A program made the position numbers and the translations under genes. The notes under the pieces were generated by a model that worked only from the letters and a program-made list of their open reading frames with translations, had not been told where the DNA came from and did not search any database. From assembly GCA_963714085.1 (NCBI GenBank), contig OY970229.1, positions 1,312,001-1,376,000 on the forward strand: a DNA stretch of 64,000 bases. The letters run 5' to 3'. Positions 587 to 47,095 of this stretch are shown here, in pieces. Each line of letters starts with the position of its first letter. Position 1 is the stretch's first letter. Source of the stretch: an uncultured Candidatus Micrarchaeota archaeon. Lineage in GTDB: Archaea > Micrarchaeota > Micrarchaeia > Anstonellales > Bilamarchaeaceae.

Positions 587-1933
587 TTACTCTAGCATCC
601 CAACGAAAAACAATGGCCGACGCATATCATCCAGCATGCCAGGGTGAGTAAAGATTATTTTTTGTTTGGTCGTGAATCCCTTGAACTGAGTTCGCCCCTT
701 GTTACGCCCGCCTATTTCACATACCAGATCGTTCACTAGATAATCAGGAGTTTTCTCTCCTCTTGTCCCCTTGAGATAATCTAATTGGATACCAAGACGT
801 GAGATAGCGTCCACGAAAAAATCTTCACGCAACGCTCCTATCGCATCATCATACGATTTGAAAAGCAATCGATATGGCAGGGCGAATAATATCTTTGGCT
901 CTTTGGTAATATTGGTGCCCTTTGGAAGAATACACTTTAGTACAAAAGCTTTTTCCAGCAAATCTACGTATCTCTGAACTTTTGTCTTAGCAATTTGGCA
1001 GTTTTGAGAGATGCTTGAATAGCTAATGCCCTCGCTTTCTGAGCGGCCGATGAAAAGTAGGATTTGGCGCACCTCAAAGGATTCGGCAAGGGTGATGCCA
1101 GAAGCTCGAATCAGATCACGTTCGATGATTGTGTCTAGCATATTGCGAAATTGTGGAAGCGTATCCTGCTGACCAAAAGTGAAAAGGTAATTACTCCCAG
1201 TAAGATAATCCTTAAACAGGGATTCAAAACGCAGATTCAGACCGTAATATGTCCTGCAACGCTCGGTATCTGTTAGATCAGAAAAAGGGAGTGGTTGAAC
1301 TTGGATATCTCTTGAAAAAAAGATAAACTCTCGAAAAGACAACGATAGAACAGAGAACACCCTCACACGGCGTGAGAGATCATATGTGGAGCTATGGAGG
1401 GAAATTGCGGATGAACTGGTAAACACCACTTGTAATTGAGGAAGAAAGTCGTAGATTTTTTTGAGTTCGTTGCCATAGTTTGGATATGCATGGATCTCGT
1501 CTATAAGAAGCAATTTGATGCCTTTGTCCATAAGTTCGTTTGCCAATCCGAAAAGGTCGGTTTCGCTTCCTGTATCGAGTGAGATATAAAACGAAGTTTT
1601 GGCCTGATTATGAATTTGTTTCAACAGCGTACTTTTTCCCACCCCCCTCGGACCGATTAGCGCTATGAAGATGCGTTCTCCTAAATGGCGATTGATCTCT
1701 TCATACACAAAACGTTTCTTGGGATAAGTAGCGCCCTCTTGCCTTGCTTTGTCGCTTAGAGTTTGCTGCTCTTCGTTGGGTACGTTACGAACTCCAAAAA
1801 CTCCCAACCGAGCCGATGGCAAGGTTGTCATATCAACAATACGTCGTGGATCCACACCTTCGGGCGGAAGTTTATGCTCTTCCTTCTTGGCGCTACGACG
1901 TTTGGTTTGTTTTCTATTACTCATACAATTCAT
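587..1933 (-). CDS. AAA+ ATPase (AAA_14/DUF4143-like); start uncertain
   Basis: Walker A GPRGVGKST, Walker B LLLIDEIH, TSSS and DLSRR motifs, C-terminal PD...EIG nuclease-like motif. Confidence 0.85.
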   Translation of the reverse strand: MNCMSNRKQTKRRSAKKEEHKLPPEGVDPRRIVDMTTLPSARLGVFGVRNVPNEEQQTLSDKARQEGATYPKKRFVYEEINRHLGERIFIALIGPRGVGKSTLLKQIHNQAKTSFYISLDTGSETDLFGLANELMDKGIKLLLIDEIHAYPNYGNELKKIYDFLPQLQVVFTSSSAISLHSSTYDLSRRVRVFSVLSLSFREFIFFSRDIQVQPLPFSDLTDTERCRTYYGLNLRFESLFKDYLTGSNYLFTFGQQDTLPQFRNMLDTIIERDLIRASGITLAESFEVRQILLFIGRSESEGISYSSISQNCQIAKTKVQRYVDLLEKAFVLKCILPKGTNITKEPKILFALPYRLLFKSYDDAIGALREDFFVDAISRLGIQLDYLKGTRGEKTPDYLVNDLVCEIGGRNKGRTQFKGFTTKQKIIFTHPGMLDDMRRPLFFVGMLE

Positions 1934-2091
1934 TACACACCAAACTATATAAACCTATCATTTTGGCTAGTATTCATACGAAATGATAGTCATTTTAGAA
2001 TAATTTCAGACAAAATGATAGTTTGTTTATGACCGTGACTTCGCCAGATTTTCGATTCATCGAGCTTTTCCGAGGTAAATTTTCGTCAAAT

Positions 2092-2210
2092 CCCTAACCC
2101 TCCCGGCCAATCATTAAATAGAACCCATCTCAGAACCGCCCTCAGTGGAAGGCATAACTTGGCTTTCTTCGGTACACACTCAGATAACCTCTCTGCATTC
2201 GGCAGGAGCA
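2092..2210. repeat. Intergenic repeat copy 2 (core at 2129-2152)
   Basis: Direct alignment with copies 1 and 3. Confidence 0.95.
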
Positions 2211-2334
2211 CTCTGCTTTTATCTAAGTGTTCCCCCCATTTGGCACCGCGGTGTCAAGTAATTCTCCTAGATATAAACTTGAAAATGTGGGAAGTTTAGG
2301 AGAACCTTAAAATGACATATTCTTATTAGTAAGC

Positions 2335-3003
2335 ATGAAAGAATTACATATGGAAAATTCCTGGTTTTTAATCTCTAGCAAACTGAAAAAAATCAAATTC
2401 AATGGAGATACGGATATTCGGTATACAGAAGAATTTGTTAAAATGTTCATCCTTAAATTTACAAAAAGAGGGGATAGAATCTTAGACCCTTTTGCTGGTT
2501 TTGGTACAACGTTGTTTGTAGGCCAGCGACTGGGACGAACAGTTCTTGGGATAGAATACGACGAAAGTCAATATGAATACATTAACGACCGGATCAAAAA
2601 GCCCTGTAAAATCATTCATGGAAATTCCCTAAAACTCAGATCTTATAAATTGCCAAAGTTTGACTTTTCCATAACTTCTCCGCCCTACATGAGAAACTTT
2701 GATAAGGAAGATCCATTTACAAATTATACAAAAATTGGGAGTTACTCAAAATATTTGAAAGATATTGGAAGAATATACCGGCAGATCAAAAAGGTAATGA
2801 AAAAAAATGCCACAATCATAATCGAAGTGTCAAATACAATTGGTGAGGGCCGTCCCATGACTCCTTTAGCTTGGGACATAGGGAGAGAAATTTCGAAAAT
2901 ATTCTTTTTCGAACAAGAAATAATTTATTGTTCGACGGAAGGCGATCATAGCCACGTTTTAGTATTTAAGAACAAATGGCTGCAAAGTAATCATTTTCAT
3001 TGA
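2335..3003 (+). CDS. SAM-dependent amino-methyltransferase (N4-C/N6-A DNA methylase family)
   Basis: Motif I DPFAGFGTT, catalytic TSPPY; very AT-rich. Confidence 0.8.
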   Translation: MKELHMENSWFLISSKLKKIKFNGDTDIRYTEEFVKMFILKFTKRGDRILDPFAGFGTTLFVGQRLGRTVLGIEYDESQYEYINDRIKKPCKIIHGNSLKLRSYKLPKFDFSITSPPYMRNFDKEDPFTNYTKIGSYSKYLKDIGRIYRQIKKVMKKNATIIIEVSNTIGEGRPMTPLAWDIGREISKIFFFEQEIIYCSTEGDHSHVLVFKNKWLQSNHFH

Positions 3004-8574: not shown

Positions 8575-10130
8575 TATTCGAACGGGACAAATATCCTGAG
8601 GAGCCCGGCGTCTATCTCATGAAAGGCGATGATGGGGCCGTGATATACGTGGGCAAGGCCTCCTCGTTGCGTGACCGGCTCTCGCAGTATTTCCTCAAAG
8701 GTAGGGACGTGAAGACCAGCACGCTGGTGTCCCACATATCGGCGATAGATTTCGTGGTGACCAAGGACGCGAAAGAGGCGCTCATACTCGAATCCAATCT
8801 GATAAAGAGCTATCAGCCCAGGTACAACCTCTGCCTCAAGGACGCGAAGCATTTCTCGTACCTCGCGCTCACAGAAGAGCGTTTCCCAAGGCTGCTCCTC
8901 GCGAGGAAGAACACCGCCGGCGCCTTCCGCATCAAGGGGGCGAAGTTCTACGGCCCGTTCGTGGAGGGCTCGAAGAGGGCGATCTCCGCGAGGTACCTCA
9001 GGAAGCTCTTCAGGATACGGATCTGCGGCACGAAGATGCCCAAAAAGGAGTGCCTCCAGTTCCACCTCGGGAACTGCGACGCGCCGTGCGTGGGCAACGT
9101 TGGCGAGGCTGATTATGGAGCGAATGTCGCAGCGCTCCGTTCCGTGCTGGAAGGGAGATTGCAAGCGGGCGTGCTCATCGAATCCCTGCGCAAGCGCATG
9201 GCCGAGGCGTCTGCCGCGATGGACTACGAACGCGCGATGTCTCTGCGCGACCAGATGGAATCGCTGAAGATATTCCTCGACAGGCAAAGAGTGGAAAAGA
9301 AACGCGGTTATGACGAGGACTACCTCTGGCTGCAGAGGATAGGACCTAACCTGCACGTGCAGATACTCCGGAGCCGCCACGGAGTCATCGGAAAGGTGGA
9401 GAAGCATTCCATGGCCATAAAGGAGCAGGAGGAGCCTGAGCTATCCTTCTGCCTCCAATATTATACCGAGATCCCGGACAGGGTGTACTCGAACCTCTCG
9501 GAATCCCAGGACAAAGCGCTCAATCTCGCGCTGGGGACCGAGGCGTTCTCGCACCCTGGCAGGGAGAAAGCCAAAGTGCTGGACATCGCGGCGCGCTCGC
9601 TCGTCATGGGCGAGGTGGACCAATCCGTCCTGAGGCTGCGCGAGAGGCTGGGCCTGGAGAACAACCCGATAACCATAGAGACCTTCGACATATCCACGCT
9701 GTTCGGGGAGGAGTCCGTGGGCTCCATGGTGAGGTTCGTGAACGGCAGGCCGGACAAGGACGGCTACCGCAGGTTCAGGATCAAGACCGTGTCAGGGCAG
9801 GACGATTTCGCCATGATGAAGGAGGTCGTGCTAAGGAGGTACCAGCGCGTCATGAAGGAGGGCGGTCCTTTGCCGGACCTCGTGCTGCTCGACGGCGGCG
9901 CAGGGCAATTGCATGCTGCCATGGACGGGATGGACGAGGCGGGCGTGCGCATCCCAGCGGCAGCGATAGCCAAGAAAGAGGAGGAGATATACCTTCCTAA
10001 CAGGATGGAGACGCTGCGCATGGAGCGCTCGGACCAGGCGCTAAAGCTCCTCCAGCGCTGCAGGGACGAGGCGCACAGGTTCGCGGTGACCTATCAGCGG
10101 CTCAGGCGCGGGAAGAAGGCCAGGGAATGA
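8571..10130 (+). CDS. uvrC: Excinuclease ABC subunit C, lacking C-terminal HhH domain
   Basis: GIY-YIG (PGVYLM..IYVGKA), Cys cluster, UVR, ETFDIS, LLDGGAGQ, RDEAHRFA. Confidence 0.95.
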   Translation: MIFERDKYPEEPGVYLMKGDDGAVIYVGKASSLRDRLSQYFLKGRDVKTSTLVSHISAIDFVVTKDAKEALILESNLIKSYQPRYNLCLKDAKHFSYLALTEERFPRLLLARKNTAGAFRIKGAKFYGPFVEGSKRAISARYLRKLFRIRICGTKMPKKECLQFHLGNCDAPCVGNVGEADYGANVAALRSVLEGRLQAGVLIESLRKRMAEASAAMDYERAMSLRDQMESLKIFLDRQRVEKKRGYDEDYLWLQRIGPNLHVQILRSRHGVIGKVEKHSMAIKEQEEPELSFCLQYYTEIPDRVYSNLSESQDKALNLALGTEAFSHPGREKAKVLDIAARSLVMGEVDQSVLRLRERLGLENNPITIETFDISTLFGEESVGSMVRFVNGRPDKDGYRRFRIKTVSGQDDFAMMKEVVLRRYQRVMKEGGPLPDLVLLDGGAGQLHAAMDGMDEAGVRIPAAAIAKKEEEIYLPNRMETLRMERSDQALKLLQRCRDEAHRFAVTYQRLRRGKKARE

Positions 10131-10132
10131 TC

Positions 10133-10966
10133 CTACTCAAGGCCAGCAGACTCGTCGAAACCGCACATGATATTCATGTTCTGGACCGCCTGGCCCGCAG
10201 CCCCTTTCATGAGGTTGTCCAGCGCGGAGATGATCACAGCCTCCCTGCCCTTCTGCGTGACGGAGATATCGCAATAATTGGTGCCCAGAGATGCCTTGGT
10301 TCCGACATCATCCTTTATCCTCACGAAAGTCTCGTGCGAATAATGCGTTTCGAGCGCATAGTGCACGCTGAAGTCAGCTTTTAGGGTCAGGTTTATGGTA
10401 GAAACGATCCCCCTTTCCAGACATTCGGCTACGATGGGTGTGAATGCCATGCCGGTCAATCCAAGCTCATGCTCCATCTCTCCTATATGGTCATGCTCCC
10501 ATCCGACCTTATACGCCCTAAGGCCGCCGTCAACGATTGCGTTCCTACCAGCCCCGGATATGCCTGAAACGGAAACCACTTTGATGCCCTCCACCAATCC
10601 CTTTATCGGCAAAAGGCCGAGTATTATGCTGGTCGCATAGCACCCGGGGTTGGAGACGAGCTTCGCAGCCCTTATCCTGTCCCTGTTTTTCTCCGGCAGA
10701 CCGTAAACCGCGTTCCCGCTAAGCCGGAATGCCCTGCTGAAATCTATTATTCTCTTGTGTTCCCCCAGTAAACACGGGACTCTTTCTCGAGAGACGTCAT
10801 TCGGTGTGGCCAAGAACATGATTTCCGCATCCTTCAACTGTCCGTCGCTAACCTTGCTGGACGAGCAATAAATCAGATCGACCAATGGGTGTTTCTGCAG
10901 CAATTCCTTTGCAACCCCGCCGCTCATTCCGGTACTGCCAACCAATCCGACCCTGACTTTGTGCAT
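10133..10966 (-). CDS. argC: N-acetyl-gamma-glutamyl-phosphate reductase (ArgC/LysY family)
   Basis: VSNPGCYAT, SGISGAGR, DNLMKGAAGQAVQNMN. Confidence 0.9.
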   Translation of the reverse strand: MHKVRVGLVGSTGMSGGVAKELLQKHPLVDLIYCSSSKVSDGQLKDAEIMFLATPNDVSRERVPCLLGEHKRIIDFSRAFRLSGNAVYGLPEKNRDRIRAAKLVSNPGCYATSIILGLLPIKGLVEGIKVVSVSGISGAGRNAIVDGGLRAYKVGWEHDHIGEMEHELGLTGMAFTPIVAECLERGIVSTINLTLKADFSVHYALETHYSHETFVRIKDDVGTKASLGTNYCDISVTQKGREAVIISALDNLMKGAAGQAVQNMNIMCGFDESAGLE

Positions 10967-11015: not shown

Positions 11016-11088
11016 CTGCAGGGACGAGGCGCACAGGTTCGCTGTCTCTTACCAGCGGCTGCGGCGCGGGAAGAAGGCCAGGGAGTGA
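11016..11088 (+). pseudogene. Duplicate fragment of the uvrC 3' end
   Basis: 65/73 nt identical to 10058-10130, ungapped, ending in the same TGA. Confidence 0.92.
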
Positions 11089-37389: not shown

Positions 37390-37437
37390 CAACGACTTTA
37401 CTCGACTTTTTATAACTTTGCAGACAATATGGTGTTC

Positions 37438-38610
37438 ATGGGAAAGTCAGTCTTCCTCATGACCGATGCGCAAGGGGCGGCAGCGGCAGCACAGGCATGC
37501 AGGCTCAAGGAGAAATTGGAGAGGTCCAGCCTCAGCCTCAGTGGTCCGCTCTCGGACAAGGGGGGCGCGGTGGAGCGGTTCGTGGGTGATGTCCGGGTCA
37601 TGGCAGAATTCATCGGGACCGATGAGCTCAGCATGGCCGTGCGCAATCTCATGCCGCGGAACAAGCCATCCATAAACGCTCTGCAGGCCACGATACCGAT
37701 GCTCGAAGTGCCGTTCATCCTGGCCGAAGCGCCGGAATGCGGATGGGGTGACTATCCGGTAAGCGCGGGAGAGGCGGCATCGGCCCCCACCGTCGGATTC
37801 AACGGAGGCTTGGCAAGGCCGCTATGCATAGCCGAGCTCACCACGCTCGCCGTGTCCGTGCTCAGGAGGCTCGGATTCGCGTGCCATTTCTCGATATCCA
37901 GCTGCTGCGCGTCCGAACCCGGCGAAAATCCCGCATCAGGAACGGAGAGCCGCATCGTACCCACGATCGTCATGCCCACGGACGATGATTTCCTGCTGCT
38001 GTCCGTGATCCATGACCAGGAGGGCTTCTTTTCTATGTACCCTCCGGTCTTTTCCGAGGCGCTGGATGACGACGCGCTCATGGCGTTCCTCGAGCTCAAT
38101 GACGCATGGTACCATGCCAAGACGCTGATGGCGGACATGTCGAAGCGTGCGATAAAGTTCGACGGCGAGCCCGAGCTCAGGTCCGCGCAAATCGGCCATC
38201 TGCTCAGCGAAGGGGCGTCCCACTGGTCCCTGTCCGAAGCCGAGGCGGACGCGGCCGATGCGAGGGGGCTCATTGGGTCGGATGCGATCAAGAGCTACAG
38301 GGAGGCCAACGGGCAAGAGGTCGTAAGGACCCTGACCGATCCAAAGCGCCATGAAAGAATGGCCGCTTGGGCGATGCTCTGCGACGACCTCAAGCGCGCG
38401 CTTAGCGAAACCCCGGATGCGGACGAGCCTGGGGTCGCCTCGCTCCATCGTAAGCTCGCAGTCTCCAGCCACACCTGCTGCGTGCCGCAGTTCAGGGACT
38501 ACCTGAATCAGTGCATACCTATAGTCAATAAGCACCTGCACCCGGCTTCGGACTGCCGGGCGGATGGAAGACCAAGTGAAACAGGCAATTCGGCGAACCG
38601 ATTAGATTAG
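37438..38610 (+). CDS. Hypothetical protein, paralog 1 (possible degenerate transglutaminase-like fold)
   Basis: Shares MGKSVF, GPxxDKxGA, LExPFI, NGGLARP, LTTLAxSVLR, HLHxAS with the next gene. Confidence 0.75.
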   Translation: MGKSVFLMTDAQGAAAAAQACRLKEKLERSSLSLSGPLSDKGGAVERFVGDVRVMAEFIGTDELSMAVRNLMPRNKPSINALQATIPMLEVPFILAEAPECGWGDYPVSAGEAASAPTVGFNGGLARPLCIAELTTLAVSVLRRLGFACHFSISSCCASEPGENPASGTESRIVPTIVMPTDDDFLLLSVIHDQEGFFSMYPPVFSEALDDDALMAFLELNDAWYHAKTLMADMSKRAIKFDGEPELRSAQIGHLLSEGASHWSLSEAEADAADARGLIGSDAIKSYREANGQEVVRTLTDPKRHERMAAWAMLCDDLKRALSETPDADEPGVASLHRKLAVSSHTCCVPQFRDYLNQCIPIVNKHLHPASDCRADGRPSETGNSANRLD

Positions 38611-38695
38611 GGAAAAGGAGCGATTCCCGGAATAGAAAATCATTCTGGTAACTACTTTACTTAACTTTTTATAACTTTGCAGATAATATACAATC

Positions 38696-39790
38696 ATGGG
38701 AAAGTCAGTCTTCTTCGGGCCTTCAAAGGAAAAGGACGCGCAAATCAAGCAGATGCGAAAGCTGCGGGACAAATTCGGCCTGGACAGCCTTAAGCTCGAC
38801 GGGCCGTTCTTGGACAAGTCGGGCGCGGCAGCGAAAATAGCTGCCCAAGTGCAGTCGTGGACCGAAGATTCCCCCAGGGACAACGTGATACAGACCGCCG
38901 TACGCACCCTCCTGCCGCAGAACAAGCTTCCTGGAAACCTTCCGTCAGACTGCAGATCCAGGCTGGAAATCCCGTTCATCGCAGGCACCGCCCCGGGAGG
39001 CTGGCAGAAGCGCTATCCGGAGATCGCAGGAGAGACGGCATCAGCCGGCGCCGTGGAATACAACGGGGGCCTGGCAAGGCCGGCGGGTGCGGTTGCTCTC
39101 ACAACCCTCGCCATGTCCGTGCTCAGGATGCTCGGAGTCGAGTGCTATTTTTCGCAATGCACCTGCATCCCGAACATTCCCGAAGAGGCGCTTCCCGCGG
39201 GAACAGAGGCCACCATCGTCCTGCATGTCCTGCCCTTACGAACCGCGCCTATAATCATCGTACCCGACGGCCCGCGGCCCAGGCAGTTATCGCTGATTCC
39301 CGACTATGGCTTTTTCTCGAATGTCACGAACCTCTCGTTCGAGGTGCTGGATAGCGACGCGCTCATGGCGTTGATCAAGCTGCATAACGCGCGCCGGCAT
39401 GCCATGGCTCTGATGACGGACTTGATGAACTATCTGCCAGGGTCCGACGAAGAGCGCACCTCCAGGGCCGTGCGGATCGGGCATATGGTCCATGAAGGCG
39501 TGTCGCTCTGGAAACTGTCCGATGCGGAGGAAGACCTCGGAAGCGCAAGGAAGCTTTTCGGGCCGTACGAGCACCAGCTGAATAGCGCCAGGTATGACCT
39601 CGAGGACGATATCGTGCACGCTATCACCTGCCTCGAACGCCATGCCGAGGTGGCCGCTTTGGTGATGCGCACCGAAGACTTCCATGGGCCTCCATTCACC
39701 GATTATATGGACCTGGCGCGTCTGATGAACGAGCACCTGCACGAGGCTTCGGAATGCAATGCCGATAGCGGCGGCGAAAAGAAGAATTGA
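38696..39790 (+). CDS. Hypothetical protein, paralog 2
   Basis: Same motifs; duplicated promoter ACTTTTTATAACTTTGCAGA. Confidence 0.75.
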   Translation: MGKSVFFGPSKEKDAQIKQMRKLRDKFGLDSLKLDGPFLDKSGAAAKIAAQVQSWTEDSPRDNVIQTAVRTLLPQNKLPGNLPSDCRSRLEIPFIAGTAPGGWQKRYPEIAGETASAGAVEYNGGLARPAGAVALTTLAMSVLRMLGVECYFSQCTCIPNIPEEALPAGTEATIVLHVLPLRTAPIIIVPDGPRPRQLSLIPDYGFFSNVTNLSFEVLDSDALMALIKLHNARRHAMALMTDLMNYLPGSDEERTSRAVRIGHMVHEGVSLWKLSDAEEDLGSARKLFGPYEHQLNSARYDLEDDIVHAITCLERHAEVAALVMRTEDFHGPPFTDYMDLARLMNEHLHEASECNADSGGEKKN

Positions 39791-39792
39791 CT

Positions 39793-40533
39793 TCACTGAA
39801 GCAGTCCAGATATCCCCAGGACTTCCTCCTTGCCGAGCGTGCGGACCTTCCTCTTCTCATACTTCCCTAGCGCTCCGAGCTCGTCCTTCTCGAACATCTT
39901 GGAGTCGAGCAGCGCGTTGCGCACGGTCTTGTTCTTGTGCGTGAAAAGGCACCGGATCACGTTCTCCTCGAACTGCGTGAGCGTCCTCCCCGTGGGCTTC
40001 AGCATTATCATGGCCGAGTCCACTTTGGGCGCGGGCCGGAAAAGGTGGCGCGGCACCAGCTGCACGAGCTCCACCTCGAAAGCTAGCTGCGCGGTCACGG
40101 ACAGGCGCCCATAGTTCTTGTCCTTCGGAGTCGCGGCCATCTTCTGCGCGAACTCCTTCTGGACGATGAGGACGGCGCGCTCGAATTTAACCCTCGCTAT
40201 CCTGAAGATGATCTGCGACGTGATGTAATACGGGATGTTCCCTGCGATCAGGTCCACGTCCGGCAATTCGAATTCAAGGAAATCCGCTTCAATCAGCGTC
40301 AGGTTCTTCCCTTTGAACTTTTCGCTCAGAAGCTCCGCCATCCGCGGGTCCTTCTCTATGGCGAATAATCTCGACGGCCCGAGCTCGAGTATCTTCTCCG
40401 TCAGCCTTCCGTCCCCAGGGCCGATCTCCAGGACGGTCCGTCCTTCTGGCTTGAGCAGCGCGGCCTCCTTGCGTAGTATGTTCTGGTCCATGAGGAAGTT
40501 CTGGCCCAGGGATTTCTTGGCTCTCAGTTCCAT
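39793..40533 (-). CDS. ksgA: 16S rRNA dimethyladenosine transferase
   Basis: KKSLGQNFL, LEIGPG, GNIPYYIT, YGRLSV, PKVDS. Confidence 0.96.
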   Translation of the reverse strand: MELRAKKSLGQNFLMDQNILRKEAALLKPEGRTVLEIGPGDGRLTEKILELGPSRLFAIEKDPRMAELLSEKFKGKNLTLIEADFLEFELPDVDLIAGNIPYYITSQIIFRIARVKFERAVLIVQKEFAQKMAATPKDKNYGRLSVTAQLAFEVELVQLVPRHLFRPAPKVDSAMIMLKPTGRTLTQFEENVIRCLFTHKNKTVRNALLDSKMFEKDELGALGKYEKRKVRTLGKEEVLGISGLLQ

Positions 40534-40549
40534 GGTAGCGAATTGGTTG

Positions 40550-41977
40550 TCAAATCTTCTTAACCGTTCCCCTGTTGCCGTCCACTTCCACCATGTCCCC
40601 GGTCCTTATCGCCTTTGTCGCGATCTTGGTCCCCACGACGCAGGGGATGCCGAATTCGCGGGATATCACCGCAGCGTGGCAGAGGATTCCGCCTTCGTTG
40701 GTGACGACCGCGGCGGCCTTTTTCATGGCTGTCACGAAATCAGGGGTCGTCATGGAGGTGACAAGGACCTCCCCGGGATTGATTTTCGCGGCTTCGGAGG
40801 CGCTCATGGTCACCAAAGCCCTCCCCCTCGCGATGCCGCCGCTCGCAGGCGCGCCGCCCAGCTCCAGCTGCTCAGAGTCGTGCCTTATGTGCGGGTCGAG
40901 GCGTTTCCATGCATCCGCAGCATCCTCGCTGAAGCATTCGATGGCATCCTTGTCCGGCCGCCAGACCGCGAGGAAACTGCGCATCCGCTTCCCGAGCAGC
41001 GAGGTGTCGAAACTTCCATCCAGGATCCCCTGCACTTCCGAGGCCATGCTGTATTTCATGGCCTTGAGGGCAAGCCCCTTCCTCCGCCCGATCTCCGCCA
41101 GGACCGAATCAAGGTGGTGGAGCGCCTTCATGATGTACTCCTTGCGGTAATCCTGGTACCAGGCGAAGAATTCCAGGAGCTCTATGAGCTTACGCTGCTC
41201 CTGCGTCAGCTTCAGGCTTTCCATGAGTTGCTGCTTCTTTTCAAGGATTGCATGGAATTCTTTTTTGGTCTTCTCCAGGTAGGCGGTCGGATCGCCGTTC
41301 TTCAAAAGCAGGATGAGCTGGGAGCTGAAGAAATCCATCCCTAAAATTTCAGTGGAGAAATAATTGTTGTGCAGCCAGAAGTACTTCCGCGCATGGCCGC
41401 GTAAATCGCTTTCAACATCCGCGCCGTCCTGCGCCTTGATCGCGATGGAAAGCAGGTCTTTGAGCTCCCTCATGGAGAACGACTCGCGGGGAGAGATGGT
41501 GAGCGCAGAAAGCTGCGCGTCGATGTCCTTCTCCGCGACGCCTTTCTCACTGAGCAGTACGCGCACCTGCCGCTCTCCGTCCAGGCCCACAGGCTCGACC
41601 AGCGCGCCAGGGACGAACCATTCCACGAGGCCCCTCTTGATGAGCAGGTAGTGGTCGAAGAGCCCGCGTTCGGTGAGCTTTGCGAGGTCTGCTTGTTGCG
41701 AGGTTTCGAATATCCGGTCGAGCTTCTGCGCTGTACGTGCTATGTCCTGCTCCAGCGCCTTCCTCTTTTCTGGTTTCAGGCAGGCCGATATAAGGTGCCT
41801 GCCATAGTCCTCCAATTCATCAAGAGGGGTCATCCAGTGTATGATGTCGCCTTTGTAGTGCAGGTACGTCGTCGGCCATGGCCTTCCGCAGTAGTCCCTC
41901 GTCGGCTTCGCCCATGCCTCCATGCAGAGGAGTATCGGGTGGACGGTGGCTTCCCGCTCCCATTCGAACCATCGCAT
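40550..41977 (-). CDS. Protein with C-terminal PEP-utilizing phospho-His (swivel) domain
   Basis: VLVTSMTTPD..TNEGGILCHAAVISREFGIPCVVG; no ATP-grasp domain recognised. Confidence 0.85.
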   Translation of the reverse strand: MRWFEWEREATVHPILLCMEAWAKPTRDYCGRPWPTTYLHYKGDIIHWMTPLDELEDYGRHLISACLKPEKRKALEQDIARTAQKLDRIFETSQQADLAKLTERGLFDHYLLIKRGLVEWFVPGALVEPVGLDGERQVRVLLSEKGVAEKDIDAQLSALTISPRESFSMRELKDLLSIAIKAQDGADVESDLRGHARKYFWLHNNYFSTEILGMDFFSSQLILLLKNGDPTAYLEKTKKEFHAILEKKQQLMESLKLTQEQRKLIELLEFFAWYQDYRKEYIMKALHHLDSVLAEIGRRKGLALKAMKYSMASEVQGILDGSFDTSLLGKRMRSFLAVWRPDKDAIECFSEDAADAWKRLDPHIRHDSEQLELGGAPASGGIARGRALVTMSASEAAKINPGEVLVTSMTTPDFVTAMKKAAAVVTNEGGILCHAAVISREFGIPCVVGTKIATKAIRTGDMVEVDGNRGTVKKI

Positions 41978-42591
41978 CAGCTCACGCTCCTGCCCGCCAG
42001 TCGCTGGCTGAAGTACTGTTTTTTCGGCAAGCCCAGCTCTTCCCTAACGGAGACGATGCGCCTGTAATAATGGCCGCGCATGGCTTCCGGCTTGTATTCG
42101 TATATCTCATCCCCGTAAAAGAAGGCGTCCAGCAGGTCTGCATCCTTGATCAGCTCCGCCAGTGCGCCATCCGAATATACGTGCTTGTCGCTGTGCGCCG
42201 CCACCGCTTTCTCGACTTCCGCCATCTCGTGCTCCGAGAATTGGCCGGTCTCTTCAAGCAGCGCCCGAGCGACGGGCCCGCCGAGGCGGCCATGGTCCTT
42301 GTAATTGCCGTGGATTATAACGTAGATATCATGAAGGGCCGCGGCTACGGCCGCCAGTTCCTCGTCCACGCCCCTCTTCTGCGCGAGCAGCTTCGCGAAC
42401 TGTATGACCGAAGACGAGTGCTTGAGCTCCCACTGAACCGAGCTCTCCCTGTCTTCCTGCGGCAGCTTCGAAGACAGCAGCATCTCGATAACCTTAGCCT
42501 GTATCTTTTCGCTCCTGTTCATGCCGTCGTGTACGAAATAATGGAAACCCGAAGGATTGTTCGTTTTCATGTCAACCGTGTCCATTGCCAT
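41977..42591 (-). CDS. HD-domain protein
   Basis: LKHS..AALHDI..DHG..AHS..KDADLLD. Confidence 0.88.
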   Translation of the reverse strand: MAMDTVDMKTNNPSGFHYFVHDGMNRSEKIQAKVIEMLLSSKLPQEDRESSVQWELKHSSSVIQFAKLLAQKRGVDEELAAVAAALHDIYVIIHGNYKDHGRLGGPVARALLEETGQFSEHEMAEVEKAVAAHSDKHVYSDGALAELIKDADLLDAFFYGDEIYEYKPEAMRGHYYRRIVSVREELGLPKKQYFSQRLAGRSVS

Positions 42592-42630
42592 AGCGGATAT
42601 TGATGACTAGCGATTTATTTATTAAATCAC

Positions 42631-42651
42631 TACTACTATATGATAGTAGTA
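42631..42651. promoter_or_regulatory. Inverted repeat TACTACTAT-N3-ATAGTAGTA, TrmB-type operator candidate
   Basis: Perfect 9-bp arms abutting the regulator start codon. Confidence 0.6.
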
Positions 42652-43409
42652 TGTATGACGATATCCTACGAAAGCTCGGCATGTCTCCCAACGAGGTGAA
42701 GGCGTACCTGGCGCTACTCTCGCTAGGGAAGACCACGACCGGGCCGCTTGTGAAGAGGACTGGGATACCGTCCTCGAGGATATACGCGACGCTCGATTCC
42801 CTGGTGGAGAAGGGTGCGGTAGGGTTCGTCGTGCAGGGCAAGGTGAAATGGTTCAACGCCAACAGGCCCGAAGTCCTCGGTCACCTCATAGACCTCAAGG
42901 AGCAGGAGCTGGAGCTGACAAAGCACGAGTTCGAATCCGTGTTGCCTGGTTTGTCGGTGGAATACGCGACTGAGAAACAGACCTACAGCGTGGAGGTGCT
43001 GGAAGGCCTCAGGGGCATCAAGTCGGTCTACGATTTCTCGCTGGCTCTGCTCCGGCCCGGGGATTGCATCTATAGCCTGGGATATCCGATGCTGGCGAGC
43101 CGGCTGCTCGACGCCTATTTCAAGGATTACCACCGGAAGCTGCGCAAAAGGAGGCTCAGGGCGAAGACCATCTATGATTACGACGCCTGGTTCGCGAAGA
43201 AACGCGCTCCACGACCCCATGCGGAGGAGCGTTATCTCCCAAAGGGTATCCACACCCCCGGATTCATCCACATCGTGAAGGACTATGTCGCCATCATGGT
43301 CGTTACGGAGAAGCAGAAGACCGCCATCCTCATAAAGAACAGGGAGGTCGCGGAGAGCTATATGCAGTATTTCAACCTGATATGGGGCGTCTCGCACCGG
43401 ACACGATAG
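42651..43409 (+). CDS. TrmB-family transcriptional regulator
   Basis: LGMSPNEVKAYLALL..TGIPSSRIYATLDSLVEKG, VEVLEGLRGIK. Confidence 0.9.
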   Translation: MYDDILRKLGMSPNEVKAYLALLSLGKTTTGPLVKRTGIPSSRIYATLDSLVEKGAVGFVVQGKVKWFNANRPEVLGHLIDLKEQELELTKHEFESVLPGLSVEYATEKQTYSVEVLEGLRGIKSVYDFSLALLRPGDCIYSLGYPMLASRLLDAYFKDYHRKLRKRRLRAKTIYDYDAWFAKKRAPRPHAEERYLPKGIHTPGFIHIVKDYVAIMVVTEKQKTAILIKNREVAESYMQYFNLIWGVSHRTR

Positions 43410-43413
43410 AAAA

Positions 43414-43460
43414 TCAGAATGCGTTCGTCTCGTCCTCTCTTCTCTATTGCCAGCACGCAG
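43414..43460 (-). pseudogene. Degenerate duplicate of the DUF357 gene 3' end
   Basis: Reads CVLAIE..DETNAF* versus CVLVIEGKKDEENAF* at 45023-45071; 2 nt shorter. Confidence 0.75.
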
Positions 43461-43538
43461 CGGTAAGCCCTGCCCATATTCGATATAAAATTAGAGAAAC
43501 AGCAACAATTTAAAAATGGTTTCCAGTATCATAAAAGC

Positions 43539-45026
43539 ATGGATATGACTTTGCCTAGTTACATCACGATAGAGCGCGGAGAGTCGACCTCGATTTGCAC
43601 GATAACCCTTGGCCGGGTCGTGCAGCAGCCTGTAGAGTATGGGGTCTCCGGAGACGGGATTCGCGGCGGGGTCGGAATGGCGAAAAAGCCATGCGCCAGC
43701 TATGACATTTCGCTGCTTGTAGGGAACATCTTCGGCAGCCAGGCATTGGATTCCGCAGACGTATGGGAAGGTCAGGGTGCCTGGAGGGGCGGCGGTTTTG
43801 GGGGCGGCTACACGAGCGACAATAATTCACGGACAACAATCGACTTTTTCGTGGGCCTGAGCCGCGAAGTCCTCCATATAGAATTCGAAACCGAGATGGA
43901 GAATCCGCTCGATTACATCCCGCCTTGGTCGGACAAAGAGAAAAGGCAGGTCATCACCATAAAAGCCAGGAATAAAATGATGGAAACGATGCTCAACCAC
44001 CCTGAATTCCTGGACATATGCAGCGTCCTTCGGGCCGGGCCGGCTGCAAGGTACAAGCCGAGAGCGCACGAGTTCAAGATGGACATTGGAAGGCCCGTGT
44101 TCCAGCCCATGGCAGGGGTTGCGATCACCGGGGCTGCCGCGCAAGGCGACGTGGCAGTGGTGTTAGGAAGAATCTACGGGGAACGGATACTCCACAATGT
44201 CGAGACTGCGACCGAAAGGCCGCGCAGGACACGGAAAATTATCGTGAAACCCCAGACGCTCAAATACCAGGGATTAGAAATCAAGCGCCCCGAACCAGTG
44301 CCGGACCAGATGGTGGAATCGACGCATTTCAGCGAGTGGAACATCGTGAGGGAGTTCACTTTCAAATCGGAAGGCAAGCCTATCACCGCGTGCTTCGAAA
44401 CTGCATTCAAGGCGGGCGAACCCGACCCCCTGCCTGCAGAAGATGCTGCGGCAAGGCAGGTAATCACGATAAAGGGCCCGAAAGACCTGGTCGAAATGGT
44501 TTCAGGATATGGAGGCCTGGAAGCTCTGTGCACTGAATTGAGAGAAAGGGACGTCGCGACGCTACAGAAAAAAGTGGCAGCTGCGACGACCGCGCCGATT
44601 CCAGACCCAAAAACGCCGCGAGGCTATGGCCCGAGATTCCCGAAGAGGACGGAATCCGGCGTTGATGAGCGTCAACCGTGTTTCAGTGACGGCATAAGCG
44701 TCCCGCCGAGGTTCAGGGACGAGCGGCAGGGCGGTTTCCACGATGACGGGCGCGGCAGGTTCGAGCGTGACCGCTCGGAGGTCTTGCAGATATGGAAAGA
44801 CGGGCATTCAGATCATAAGGGATTGCCGGGTGCCTCAAGAAGGGAAAGGGACAACAGGCGCCCGTTCAGGGAAGGCGATTTCGTGAGGCCTCCGGCGAGG
44901 TTCAGACAGCCCGAGCCTCCAAAATCGCAGTCCAAACCGCCGGCCAATACCGCTGAAGGGATCGCAAGGCTGACGATGAAACCGACCAGGCTTGGTTACG
45001 ACCGGCTCGGCAGGCGCACGCGCTAG
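43539..45026 (+). CDS. Hypothetical protein with internal duplicated domain and disordered basic tail
   Basis: FET..RQVITIK..E....C..LR occurs twice. Confidence 0.7.
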   Translation: MDMTLPSYITIERGESTSICTITLGRVVQQPVEYGVSGDGIRGGVGMAKKPCASYDISLLVGNIFGSQALDSADVWEGQGAWRGGGFGGGYTSDNNSRTTIDFFVGLSREVLHIEFETEMENPLDYIPPWSDKEKRQVITIKARNKMMETMLNHPEFLDICSVLRAGPAARYKPRAHEFKMDIGRPVFQPMAGVAITGAAAQGDVAVVLGRIYGERILHNVETATERPRRTRKIIVKPQTLKYQGLEIKRPEPVPDQMVESTHFSEWNIVREFTFKSEGKPITACFETAFKAGEPDPLPAEDAAARQVITIKGPKDLVEMVSGYGGLEALCTELRERDVATLQKKVAAATTAPIPDPKTPRGYGPRFPKRTESGVDERQPCFSDGISVPPRFRDERQGGFHDDGRGRFERDRSEVLQIWKDGHSDHKGLPGASRRERDNRRPFREGDFVRPPARFRQPEPPKSQSKPPANTAEGIARLTMKPTRLGYDRLGRRTR

Positions 45027-45274
45027 AATGCATTCTCTTCATCCTTCTTTCCTTCTATTACCAGCACGCAGTCTATGAACCCGTAGGCGTAATTCGCGGC
45101 TCCGAAGCTGGTGAAATAGTCCCCCTTGTCGTAGTAGTGCTTCGCATCCTTGGCGTAGTTCTCCGCCCATTCCATGACGGGCGGGTATTTCGCGTCGAGC
45201 CCGAGTTTCCTGAACTCCTCCAGTATGCGCTCGAGTTTCTTGAGGTCCTTCTCCGCGCGCGCCTTCTCGTCCAT
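45023..45274 (-). CDS. DUF357 family protein
   Basis: AENYAKDAKHYYDKGDYFTSFGAANYAYGFID. Confidence 0.88.
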   Translation of the reverse strand: MDEKARAEKDLKKLERILEEFRKLGLDAKYPPVMEWAENYAKDAKHYYDKGDYFTSFGAANYAYGFIDCVLVIEGKKDEENAF

Positions 45275-45275
45275 G

Positions 45276-45791
45276 TCAGATCTCCTGCACCAGCTCCTTG
45301 AGGTCCTTCCGTCTGGTCCGTTCAGGCTTCTCCGCTGGATATCCCACGGGGATGACCGCCACAGGGACCTCGTGCTCGCCCAGCCTCAGTATCCTGGACA
45401 CCTCGAGCGGGTCGAATCCGCCGACCCAGACGCTGCTCAGCCCCAGGGCGGTCGCTGCCAGCTGGCAGTATGCCGCGGCGATGGTCGCGTCCTGTATGGC
45501 ATAAAGCTCGTAGCCCCGCTCGGCGTACCTGGCCTCGGACTGCATCTTTTCCGCGCAGAAGACGAGCAAGGCCGGGGCATGCGCCACGGGCTCCTGCTCC
45601 ATGCAGGCGATCACCATGTCCTCCCTCGTCTTCCTGTCCCTCACCAGGAATATGCGGTACGCCTGCAGGCCCCCCGCGGAGGGCGCCAGGTTAACGGTAT
45701 CCAGCAGCCTCTTGAGCAGCTTCGGGTCTATCTTCCTGTCCTCGTAAACCCTCACCGACCTCCGTCCGTCCACGGTTTCGAAAAAGTCCAT
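45276..45791 (-). CDS. Nitroreductase family protein
   Basis: RRSVRVY, APSAGGLQ, LGLSSVWVG, PVGYP. Confidence 0.92.
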   Translation of the reverse strand: MDFFETVDGRRSVRVYEDRKIDPKLLKRLLDTVNLAPSAGGLQAYRIFLVRDRKTREDMVIACMEQEPVAHAPALLVFCAEKMQSEARYAERGYELYAIQDATIAAAYCQLAATALGLSSVWVGGFDPLEVSRILRLGEHEVPVAVIPVGYPAEKPERTRRKDLKELVQEI

Positions 45792-45842: not shown

Positions 45843-46934
45843 ATGCCGGTCGAGAAAAAAACGGTTTCGCCAAAAGCCGGAGCCGCAAAACCTGAAACGC
45901 CGCGTGCCGTACAGCCTGGAGCGCCCGCCCCAGGCGCGGTTCAGAAAGACGGCATGTCCGATTTCATCACGGGCCCCTTCCGCAAGTGGTGGGATTTCAT
46001 CCGCATTAACCCTGTGGGTTACTGGCTGGGGCTGGTCAGGATATCGCTCGCCTCCACTCTCGTTTACGTGCTTTTCTATATCCTCATGCTAGCGGCGCTC
46101 GTAGGCGTGGTGTTCGCCCTTGGCGGGGTGGGAGAAGTGCTTAAGATGGCTCCGCTTCAGCTGGTCCTCCTCATCGCTCTTTTCGGGATCGTTTTTCTCG
46201 TAGGTTCCCTTGCCATTGCATGGCTCGCCAGTTCGATAAGCATGACATCGATCGCATATACCGATGCGCGGCTGACCGGAGGGAGCTTCTCGATATCCGA
46301 GTGCTTTTCCAGGATAAAGTACCGCGTGCTCAAGTTCCTGCTGGCTTTGACCGGGATCCTCTTCGCAGTGCGGATTCCATTGTACCTGCTGTTCGCCGCG
46401 TTCATAGCGGTTGTCATATGCATGGCCCTTGCTTCCAGCGCCTACACCGGGTTGTCGCTGGTGCTTCTCCCCTTTGGAATGATGTTCTATCTGGTATTCT
46501 ATCTCCTCGTCCTGATGTACATCTTTCTCCTCTTGGTATTCTACGCGGCCTTCGCTTTCGTGGCCCAGTTCTGGCTGCTAGGGATCGTCCTTGAAGGGAA
46601 GGGCGTGGTGGTGTCCCTGAAAAGAAGCTTTGCCATCGTCAAGGCAAGCCCTCTCGAATCGTTCCTTTTCTGCGTCTTATGGGCCATCGGGACGTGCATC
46701 GCGTCCCTGCCCATGATGGCATTCGTGTTCGTGATATACATCGGCGTTTTCGCGAGCGTATACATCGTAGCGTCGCTCGGCGTGCTCTGGGGCGGCGTGA
46801 TCGTGGCGTTCCTGTTTCTGCTGGACATGCTGATTTCTGTCCTGCTGGGCTCGATCACATCCGCTTTCAGCCAGCCGACCCAGATCCTTTTCTGGAAGAG
46901 CGCCAGGGACAGGATGGAAAAAGCGCAAGCGTAA
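45843..46934 (+). CDS. Polytopic membrane protein
   Basis: About six long hydrophobic segments. Confidence 0.75.
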   Translation: MPVEKKTVSPKAGAAKPETPRAVQPGAPAPGAVQKDGMSDFITGPFRKWWDFIRINPVGYWLGLVRISLASTLVYVLFYILMLAALVGVVFALGGVGEVLKMAPLQLVLLIALFGIVFLVGSLAIAWLASSISMTSIAYTDARLTGGSFSISECFSRIKYRVLKFLLALTGILFAVRIPLYLLFAAFIAVVICMALASSAYTGLSLVLLPFGMMFYLVFYLLVLMYIFLLLVFYAAFAFVAQFWLLGIVLEGKGVVVSLKRSFAIVKASPLESFLFCVLWAIGTCIASLPMMAFVFVIYIGVFASVYIVASLGVLWGGVIVAFLFLLDMLISVLLGSITSAFSQPTQILFWKSARDRMEKAQA

Positions 46935-46979: not shown

Positions 46980-47095
46980 TGTCAGCAGCAGCGCGCTTTT
47001 CCGTCCGTAGGACAGTACCGGCAACGCCGTGAGGAGGCTTAACTTCTGAGTTCGAGATGGGATCAGGTGTTTCCCCCCTCCTATGGCCGCTGACA
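46980..47095 (-). rRNA. rrf: 5S rRNA (unlinked)
   Basis: GTCAGCGGCCATA..CACCTGATCCCATCTCGAACTCAGAAGTTAAG..GCTGCTGAC; terminal helix pairs. Confidence 0.93.

Follow-up and report, generated by a model that had tools for sequence, protein, structure and literature searches.

Cis-mobilizable elements (CIMEs) are integrase-less units flanked by attachment (att) sites that accrete beside integrative and conjugative elements (ICEs) as well as beside integrative and mobilizable ones (IMEs), and insertion with long target duplication was reportedly described by Nobusato et al. in 2000. Excerpts of Furuta, Abe and Kobayashi (2010; PMC2853133) describe bacterial restriction-modification inserts with direct repeats of >30 bp, some of them over gene 3' ends, and state that no archaeal case survived the screen. 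Excerpts of Jackson et al. (2009; PMC2935791) describe rhs loci where laterally acquired C-termini displace existing ones and leave arrays of displaced tips, and where homologous recombination with circular intermediates was proposed. Similarly, excerpts of a study on type VI secretion system (T6SS) effector-immunity genes in Vibrio describe sequential displacement via homology-facilitated illegitimate recombination (PMC5361080). Statements below that cite these papers, or PMC5495485, extend only to such excerpts. We analyzed a stretch of 64,000 nt (the window; contig OY970229.1, positions 1,312,001 to 1,376,000) from the genome of an uncultured Candidatus Micrarchaeota archaeon (G000), in which a cassette with a single 495-codon gene lies at the 3' end of a gene coding for a DUF357 protein and is bracketed by two copies of the DUF357 tail. 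Positions refer to the window unless given as genome or contig positions. An original prediction made from the sequence alone had read this locus as gene acquisition at a core-gene 3' end. We find that the cassette is indeed a true insertion that keeps DUF357 whole and that the pattern is recurrent, as that prediction had also supposed, with about 12 cases in the genome, above controls.

The DUF357 gene (45023-45274, minus strand; 83 aa, Pfam PF04010, E 2e-14) faces a convergent 495-aa open reading frame (ORF), the cargo (43539..45026, plus strand), and the TAG stops of the two genes overlap in the palindrome CTAG. Beyond the start of the cargo is a DUF357 tail remnant of 47 nt, displaced 1.6 kb downstream (43414..43460, minus strand), which is identical to the functional, cassette-linked 3' end of the gene (CVLVIEGKKDEENAF-TAG; 45023..45071, minus strand, 49 nt) at 40 of 49 alignment columns on the same strand. 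The homology has an abrupt onset 49 nt before the DUF357 stop, in frame with the gene end, and opens with 11 identical nt, CTGCGTGCTGG. The native 5' part of the gene up to this point, or head (45072..45274, minus strand; PF04010), is 84% identical at the aa level to that of the same-genus genome G001. A 2-nt deletion frameshifts the remnant, which reads CVLAIEKRG and then, in the +1 frame, DETNAF followed by its TGA stop; this agrees with the tail repeat and the reading CVLAIE..DETNAF-TGA put forward earlier. Between remnant and cargo is an AT-rich, promoter-like region (43461..43538, plus strand) that is kept with the cargo in five lineages, as observed by side-by-side reading of G000, L089, G071, G072 and L090, and that probably serves as the cargo promoter. 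The remnant TGA sits 4 nt from the stop of a TrmB-family regulator gene (42600..43409, plus strand; Pfam PF01978), the original convergent neighbor of DUF357 here, and the neighbors of the cassette are TrmB, DUF357 and a nitroreductase gene (NitroR). Both junctions (42937-43803 and 44374-45328) are bridged by independent Logan contigs from sequencing run X1, and a contig from run X2, which belongs to another study, spans 43317-43689 with 1 mismatch, indicating that the structure is not an assembly artefact.

The arrangement without the cassette is present in G055 (locus L135), which belongs to another genus and has ~70% nt identity to G000. Specifically, the G055 order ksgA-PEPut-HD-TrmB><DUF357-NitroR is that of G000 minus the cassette, with a single DUF357 tail directly facing TrmB, and window positions 39891-43401 and 45039-45568 align to G055 at 70% as two blocks with a 30-nt gap between them. 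TrmB and DUF357 are likewise adjacent without cargo in G074 and G076, and in all three genomes the intact tail lies about 9-16 nt from TrmB, the place that is occupied by the remnant in G000. The G055 arrangement therefore indicates that the remnant is the tail left in place beside TrmB, and that an empty site exists in relatives, as had been asked of the earlier interpretation, though in a different genus. Note that DUF357 is followed by ksgA in all seven relatives first examined, including the same-genus genomes G001 and G002; these two were rejected as empty sites since they represent a different locus type and not the empty form.

The same cassette is found at the same gene end in different surroundings. 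Full-length cargo is present in 2 of the 98 other genomes of the family (G071 and G072) and on two further metagenome contigs (L089 and L090), and all five cargo lineages show the order remnant DUF357 tail, conserved AT-rich region, cargo, DUF357. The far neighbor varies: TrmB occupies this place in G000 and an unrelated gene does so in L089, and G071, G072 and L090 carry three or four p364-like paralogues there as an array. The cargo is thus a conserved family tied to the DUF357 gene end in five Micrarchaeota lineages, and the earlier description of it as an orphan has to be dropped. The DUF357 insertion is also old rather than a fresh capture. G000 and L089 are close in their flanks (NitroR 96% and FtsZ 95% aa identity) but only 40% identical in the cargo. 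In G072 (L063; G072:C13 6829-8075) a second ORF of 376 aa lies between cargo and DUF357, with a 28-nt tail repeat, identical in both copies, on its two sides, giving two remnants behind one DUF357 as an array of displaced ends. This result indicates that cassettes stack at the DUF357 address. The 376-aa ORF matched no Pfam, PADLOC or NCBIfam family; a HEAAHH motif was noted in it by eye.

A survey of 30 DUF357 loci in genus g19 (L105-L134) revealed how closely the tail repeat follows the cargo. Downstream of DUF357, ksgA lies within 120 nt at 19 loci and 657-930 nt away at 5, a convergent TrmB-HD-PEP-utiliser block begins 10-16 nt away at 3, the 495-aa cargo is present at 2, and 1 locus has none of these. 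The tail repeat occurs only at the two loci with cargo (scores 39 and 59), while the other 28, including 9 with other inserts or neighbors, score 23 or less. As a separate observation, the 657-930 nt of other DNA between DUF357 and ksgA at 5 of the 30 loci comes without a tail repeat, and these interrupted loci mark the 3' flank of DUF357 as a hot spot for insertions in general.

Comparing the locus with the systems introduced above reveals likenesses and differences in each case. As at rhs loci, the incoming unit supplies a new 3' end, the old end is kept downstream and arrays form (PMC2935791). Unlike rhs, where the displaced piece is a large functional toxin tip with an immunity gene, the tail here is a conserved 15-residue sequence that provides docking homology only, the cargo is unrelated and convergent with a putative promoter of its own, and the hosts are housekeeping genes of an archaeon (PMC2935791). 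As in insertion with long target duplication, a small insert without integrase or transposase is flanked by direct repeats of >30 bp (49 and 47 nt) that are single copy in the empty genome; unlike that process, in which both copies match the target almost equally, the copies here show mainly synonymous differences, and the gene-linked copy has cargo-like codons (PMC2853133). The synonymous differences and the cargo-like codon use together suggest import rather than duplication. Like CIMEs, the cassette is an integrase-less unit flanked by direct repeats, stacks at one site and regenerates the gene end, and the copies share an identical core (11 nt in G000, 28 nt in G072, 25 of 26 nt in L089). 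It differs from CIMEs in that no cognate integrase-bearing element was found, although no systematic search was made for one, and in that a dozen unrelated gene ends are involved in a 1.57-Mb genome. As with T6SS modules, successive arrivals displace older ones and orphan arrays form behind a conserved gene; unlike these effector/immunity modules, the inserts are unrelated single genes behind housekeeping genes and carry a short duplicated tail (PMC5361080). Finally, integron cassettes are promoterless, have attC hairpins and depend on an adjacent IntI and attI, whereas here there is no recombinase beside the locus and the cargo has its own AT-rich upstream region. No inverted repeat stood out at the cassette ends, where no attC-model search was made, and a search for structured RNA in the region gave just one sub-threshold snoRNA match (E 0.33). 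In the literature we found no paper on direct repeats together with an integrase in Micrarchaeota.

The mechanism had been thought to be undescribed, a view that does not stand given that rhs C-terminal displacement (PMC2935791) and insertion with long target duplication (PMC2853133) precede it, and that CIMEs, too, are a near precedent. It is a variant of a known recombinase-less route of gene gain. What sets it apart is the docking at short conserved ends of housekeeping genes, the unrelated cargo with its own promoter region, the faithfulness of one family to one gene end across genera, and the presence of about 12 sites in a 1.57-Mb archaeal genome.

Starting from what is observed directly at these loci (the arrangement of the repeats, an empty site, one and the same cassette and gene end in differing neighborhoods, stacking, and a cassette that lacks a recombinase), we lean modestly toward tail-addressed recombination, in which a cassette with a short mimic of a gene end recombines with the resident end and encodes no recombinase itself. 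In this scheme a promoter-bearing one-gene cassette would carry at its end a short stretch that copies the 3' end of DUF357, and this tail would recombine with the resident gene end inside the short shared core (CTGCGTGCTGG...). The likeliest route would be one crossover of a circular cassette form, of the Campbell type. As an outcome, DUF357 would read into the cassette-borne tail, with the old tail staying unused beside TrmB. Recombination between the tail copies would in turn excise the cassette as a circle with one tail, and the released circle could enter any relative that has a similar gene end, the tail serving as the address. Repeated entry would stack cassettes as in G072, and such re-entry would account for the same cassette being at the same gene end in different neighborhoods, for stacking and for the patchy distribution. 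This process, acting with different tails and cargo, could lie behind the roughly one dozen core-gene-end scars in this genome. The circular intermediate is our inference from this geometry, and the enzyme would presumably be either host RadA-type recombination acting on 30-70 nt or a tyrosine recombinase supplied in trans. In regards to the earlier claim that the route is integrase-free, this holds in cis, as there is no recombinase in the cassette, but not genome-wide, as three tyrosine recombinases (PF00589) are encoded elsewhere, the nearest ~46 kb from the DUF357 cassette at genome position 1308830.

Little is understood of how DPANN archaea, whose genomes are tiny and have few classical mobile elements, acquire accessory genes. 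At the loci described here single genes are slotted into the ends of essential genes, which stay undamaged, without a recombinase of their own. If a gene-end copy does act as the address for homology-driven entry and exit, it would constitute a simple route of gene flow. Short orphan gene ends in intergenic DNA also mark insertion slots and can be used to find accessory genes as well as empty and filled alleles in metagenomes. More tentatively, and with appreciable doubt on our part, Micrarchaeota and perhaps other small-genome archaea and Candidate Phyla Radiation (CPR) bacteria might possess an integron-like cassette system without the integron. Promoter-bearing single-gene cassettes would use a gene-end mimic of 30-70 nt as address, enter and exit as circles by short-homology recombination, regenerate the gene and form arrays, and such traffic would be a principal means of gene flow in these reduced genomes.

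A second case within the window involves uvrC, whose geometry had been likened to that of DUF357, and the likeness is borne out. The functional 3' end of uvrC (10058..10130, plus strand; uvrC domains were found in the gene) and a displaced, in-frame remnant (11016..11088, plus strand) form a 73-nt repeat with 65 of 73 positions identical, the codons differing in 6 synonymous and 1 non-synonymous changes. Between the two tails is an argC-like ORF of 277 aa (10133..10966, minus strand) that matches Pfam Semialdhyde_dh and dhC and scores 223 bits against TIGR01850 argC, under the cut-off of 233.6. The repeats of both DUF357 and uvrC begin at CTGC as had been stated, yet only 2 of the 12 repeats described below do so, and CTGC is thus not a general junction motif. 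As a side observation, the metagenome-assembled genome (MAG) G001 of the same genus has at least the last 129 nt of uvrC at the ends of two contigs, L025 (G001:C57) and L029 (G001:C1), which continue differently, one of them into AT-rich DNA; this may represent a hot spot or second cassette slot, or strain mixing in the MAG.

We searched the whole genome (one contig of 1,571,539 bp, 57.3% GC) for duplicated C-termini by aligning the last 60 nt of 1154 genes to the 5 kb downstream of each, the 1160 genes having been called by a crude codon-score ORF picker made for this analysis. A score of at least 36 was reached by 27 genes and at least 40 by 24 genes. This is contrasted by a reversed-query control with 1 and 0 genes at these cut-offs (maximum 37) and an opposite-strand control with 0 and 0 (maximum 34). 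With its score of 44, DUF357 ranks above every one of the 2308 control comparisons (2 x 1154). The excess over controls anticipated by the original prediction is therefore present. An upstream control gave 16 genes at 36 or more and 13 at 40 or more because of tandem paralogues, and the scan matches were therefore sorted by hand. About 12 of them are tail-only repeats with an abrupt onset 18-73 nt before the stop, and the remainder are paralogues or local repeats. A second run on 994 genes of at least 400 nt gave 15 tail-only versus 6 head-only matches, while 14 of 994 internal control segments also matched downstream DNA owing to tandem paralogues. Displaced gene heads were considered and rejected, as most of the head-only matches are N-termini of paralogues and no more than one or two qualify as candidates.

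The host genes in these 12 cases code for DUF63, a family-less 258-aa protein, UvrC, RtcB, an amino-acid kinase, Kae1/TsaD, a pyridine-nucleotide disulphide oxidoreductase, RNase P p29, DUF357, glutamate dehydrogenase, a YgjP-like peptidase and ATP synthase subunit D, and the inserts measure 0.37-1.56 kb. In the ten cases outside the window, 10 of the 12 cargo ORFs that were scanned have no Pfam family at E 0.001 or better; of the other two, one is sigma-70-like and one codes for a nucleotidyltransferase that weakly matches MntA antitoxin. By eye only, one cassette appears RelE-like and another HEPN-like. Note that the DUF63 case, where the cargo resembles the next genes, and the sigma-like case may be tandem duplications and not imports. 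A tRNA-type att site was rejected for case c11, as ARAGORN detected no tRNA in L009.

Several observations weigh against tail-addressed recombination. The sorting of the ~12 displaced tails was done by eye on a crude gene set. Neither an empty-site or excision joint nor a circular form was seen among contigs of three runs (X1-X3, which contain this organism at 99% or more), although their ~5x depth is too shallow to show absence. Two cargoes are not bound to a single tail, one being c2, described below, and the other the argC-like ORF, whose nearest homologue (G042, 72% aa identity) is not beside uvrC. Identity to orthologous tails also fails to mark the remnant as the native copy. For example, the functional DUF357 tail and the remnant match G001 at 37/47 and 36/48 positions and G055, which is too distant an empty genome for this purpose, at 36/52 and 34/52, and the two uvrC copies match orthologous tails at 63/72 (functional) and 60/72 (remnant). 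At RtcB, identity to G001 is 86% for the gene-linked copy and the DNA downstream of it but just 67% for the remnant side, indicating that the polarity can be reversed. Finally, a small two-gene cassette, c2, is present at three unrelated loci in G000 (L002 3732-4414), G001 (L082, G001:C13 1501-2169) and G072 (L078, G072:C18 1501-2172), with homology of ~80% nt identity across two genera that reaches no further than its own promoter and its stop, and a gene-tail repeat flanks only the G000 copy. In addition to these points, the c2 cassette has a GC content of 47% and no family match, being RelE-like by eye only. The RtcB gene (L003 3379-5256; genome 1304379-1306256, minus strand), whose tail is duplicated, carries an intein (Intein_splicing match), and its remnant side together with the next gene looks like a diverged allele.

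The explanation that competes best is insertion with long target duplication, which we regard as rather unlikely. It holds that a tail-less cassette entered at a staggered break or by template switching that copied 30-70 nt of target, and that the copies diverged afterwards or underwent partial homogenization by gene conversion. Such a process is compatible with the c2 cassette being at three loci without a fixed tail, with orthologous-tail identity favoring neither copy as foreign, with repeats that are perfect or nearly so at some sites (100% over 52 nt, 100% over 33 nt, 55/59), and with the repeat extending past the stop codon into intergenic DNA in recent cases. It also has a precedent in bacterial integrase-less inserts with target duplications of 46-423 bp, some overlapping gene 3' ends (PMC2853133). 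Against this, the same cassette must have hit the same 47-nt stretch of DUF357 amid three different far neighbors, or else three later rearrangements must each have ended exactly at the remnant stop.

The distribution of differences between the copies also argues against a simple duplication, as these are not even. Specifically, they cluster past the identical core, with 0/28 mismatches in the core versus 6/13 after it in G072 (p 0.0004), and 1/26 versus 7/21 in L089 (p 0.015). Over the 12 cases, 40 of 62 between-copy differences fall at the third position of a codon, and where codons differ, the change is synonymous in 27 and non-synonymous in 12. This third-position excess is significant against an expectation of one third (p 6e-7) and against the 46% expected for a freely decaying remnant (p 0.0026), the latter figure being a rough estimate, and it indicates that both copies evolved as working gene ends. 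The pattern suggests that one copy came from a diverged relative. Codon usage is a further point that target duplication does not readily accommodate. The G+C content at third codon positions (GC3) is 0.807 for the genome and 0.85 for the DUF357 head, while only 4 of the last 12 codons of the functional tail end in G or C, a value of 4 or less being found in just 22 of the 1160 crude genes. The genome prefers GAC (77%), GAG (75%) and AAC (81%); the functional tail uses GAT, GAA and AAT, in agreement with the contrast drawn in the original prediction between host-like codons in the remnant and these codons in the functional tail. The functional tail shares its A/T-ending codon bias with the cargo, whose GC3 of 0.67 is within the lowest 4% of genes. 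The clustering of mismatches, the third-position excess, the codon usage and the TAG ends of cargo-linked tails described below also speak for tail-addressed recombination, in which the tail arrived with the cassette.

An unlikely explanation is that the cassettes, in the manner of CIMEs, derive from integrase-borne elements as their att-flanked remnants or satellites. The tails would then be the attL and attR sites of a tyrosine recombinase, either one working in trans or one since deleted. An identical core with diverged arms is the classic att picture, stacking resembles tandem accretion, the genome does encode three tyrosine recombinases, and one archaeal integrase is described as recombining pairs of sequences that are unrelated and can be as short as 104 bp (PMC5495485), which makes an enzyme acting in trans conceivable. 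Yet the twelve target genes differ and no core is common to their tails. The search for a shared junction motif that had been called for yielded none among the 12 repeats, the only enriched word being GAAGAAG (AAG AAG, Lys-Lys) in 5 of 12 repeats, a level reached by 0.5% of random gene-tail sets. This word may be a recombination-prone purine run or may merely reflect Lys-rich protein ends. There is also no recombinase within ~46 kb of the DUF357 cassette, and no integrase-bearing element that uses these tails was found, although no systematic search was made. The last alternative, that nothing was inserted and that the tails reflect chance similarity, paralogy or mis-assembly, is highly improbable: short repeats are common, as the 14 of 994 matching internal segments illustrate, but the DUF357 score lies above every control comparison, the homology begins abruptly and in frame, independent contigs cross both junctions, and G055 offers an empty site while four other lineages have the same architecture.

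In regards to the cargo protein itself, it contains two repeated alpha/beta domains followed by a disordered Arg-rich C-terminus. A repeat within the gene (43943-43986 and 44453-44496, 510-nt spacing, coding for RQVITIKA and RQVITIKG) reflects these two homologous domains of ~170 aa each. No family match was obtained in Pfam, PHROGs, PADLOC or NCBIfam, and 5.8 billion clustered proteins yielded four homologues at 41-53% identity. A structure model had a predicted local distance difference test score (pLDDT) of 65, and its best Foldseek match (4xrt_B; E 7.7e-4, Foldseek match probability 0.38, template modelling (TM) score 0.12-0.17) was counted as no match; a sequence profile search of the PDB gave 0 matches and the ESM Atlas nothing usable. 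The idea that the cargo is a recombinase or a member of another known family was rejected, as neither the sequence libraries nor the structure model gave a family match or a recombinase-like fold. The CTAG overlap of the cargo and tail stops is observed in G000, G071, L090 and the cargo-linked (inner) remnant of G072, and the cargo-linked tails in these four end in TAG while most other DUF357 tails end in TGA. In L089 the DUF357 tail has a TGA stop, and 9 nt separate it from the cargo stop.

Kinship of the cargo with the neighboring p364 family was also rejected (hhalign probability 0.1). This p364/p393 family, which has no Pfam match, is present in two copies beside ksgA in G000 (37429-39790), and tandem arrays of three or four copies adjoin the cargo in genus g19 (L063 599-5254, L064 1993-5433 and L090 438-3893). 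Elsewhere around the locus, a gene for a 363-aa polytopic membrane protein (45843-46934, plus strand) lies between the nitroreductase gene and a 5S rRNA gene in G000 and is absent from the corresponding position both in L089, a close relative, and in G001. It lacks flanking repeats (best score 18), indicating an insertion of another kind than the cassettes. The 5S rRNA gene (46980-47094, minus strand; Rfam RF00001, 75 bits), which is located between this extra membrane-protein gene and ftsZ, is strongly conserved in L089 and G001. Finally, window positions 587-3003 contain an AAA_14/DUF4143 ATPase gene and a DNA-methylase fragment that matches only the C-terminal part of the Pfam model. Together with a tyrosine recombinase gene ~3 kb ahead of the window (genome 1308830-1309330), these genes may be a mobile-element remnant beside uvrB.

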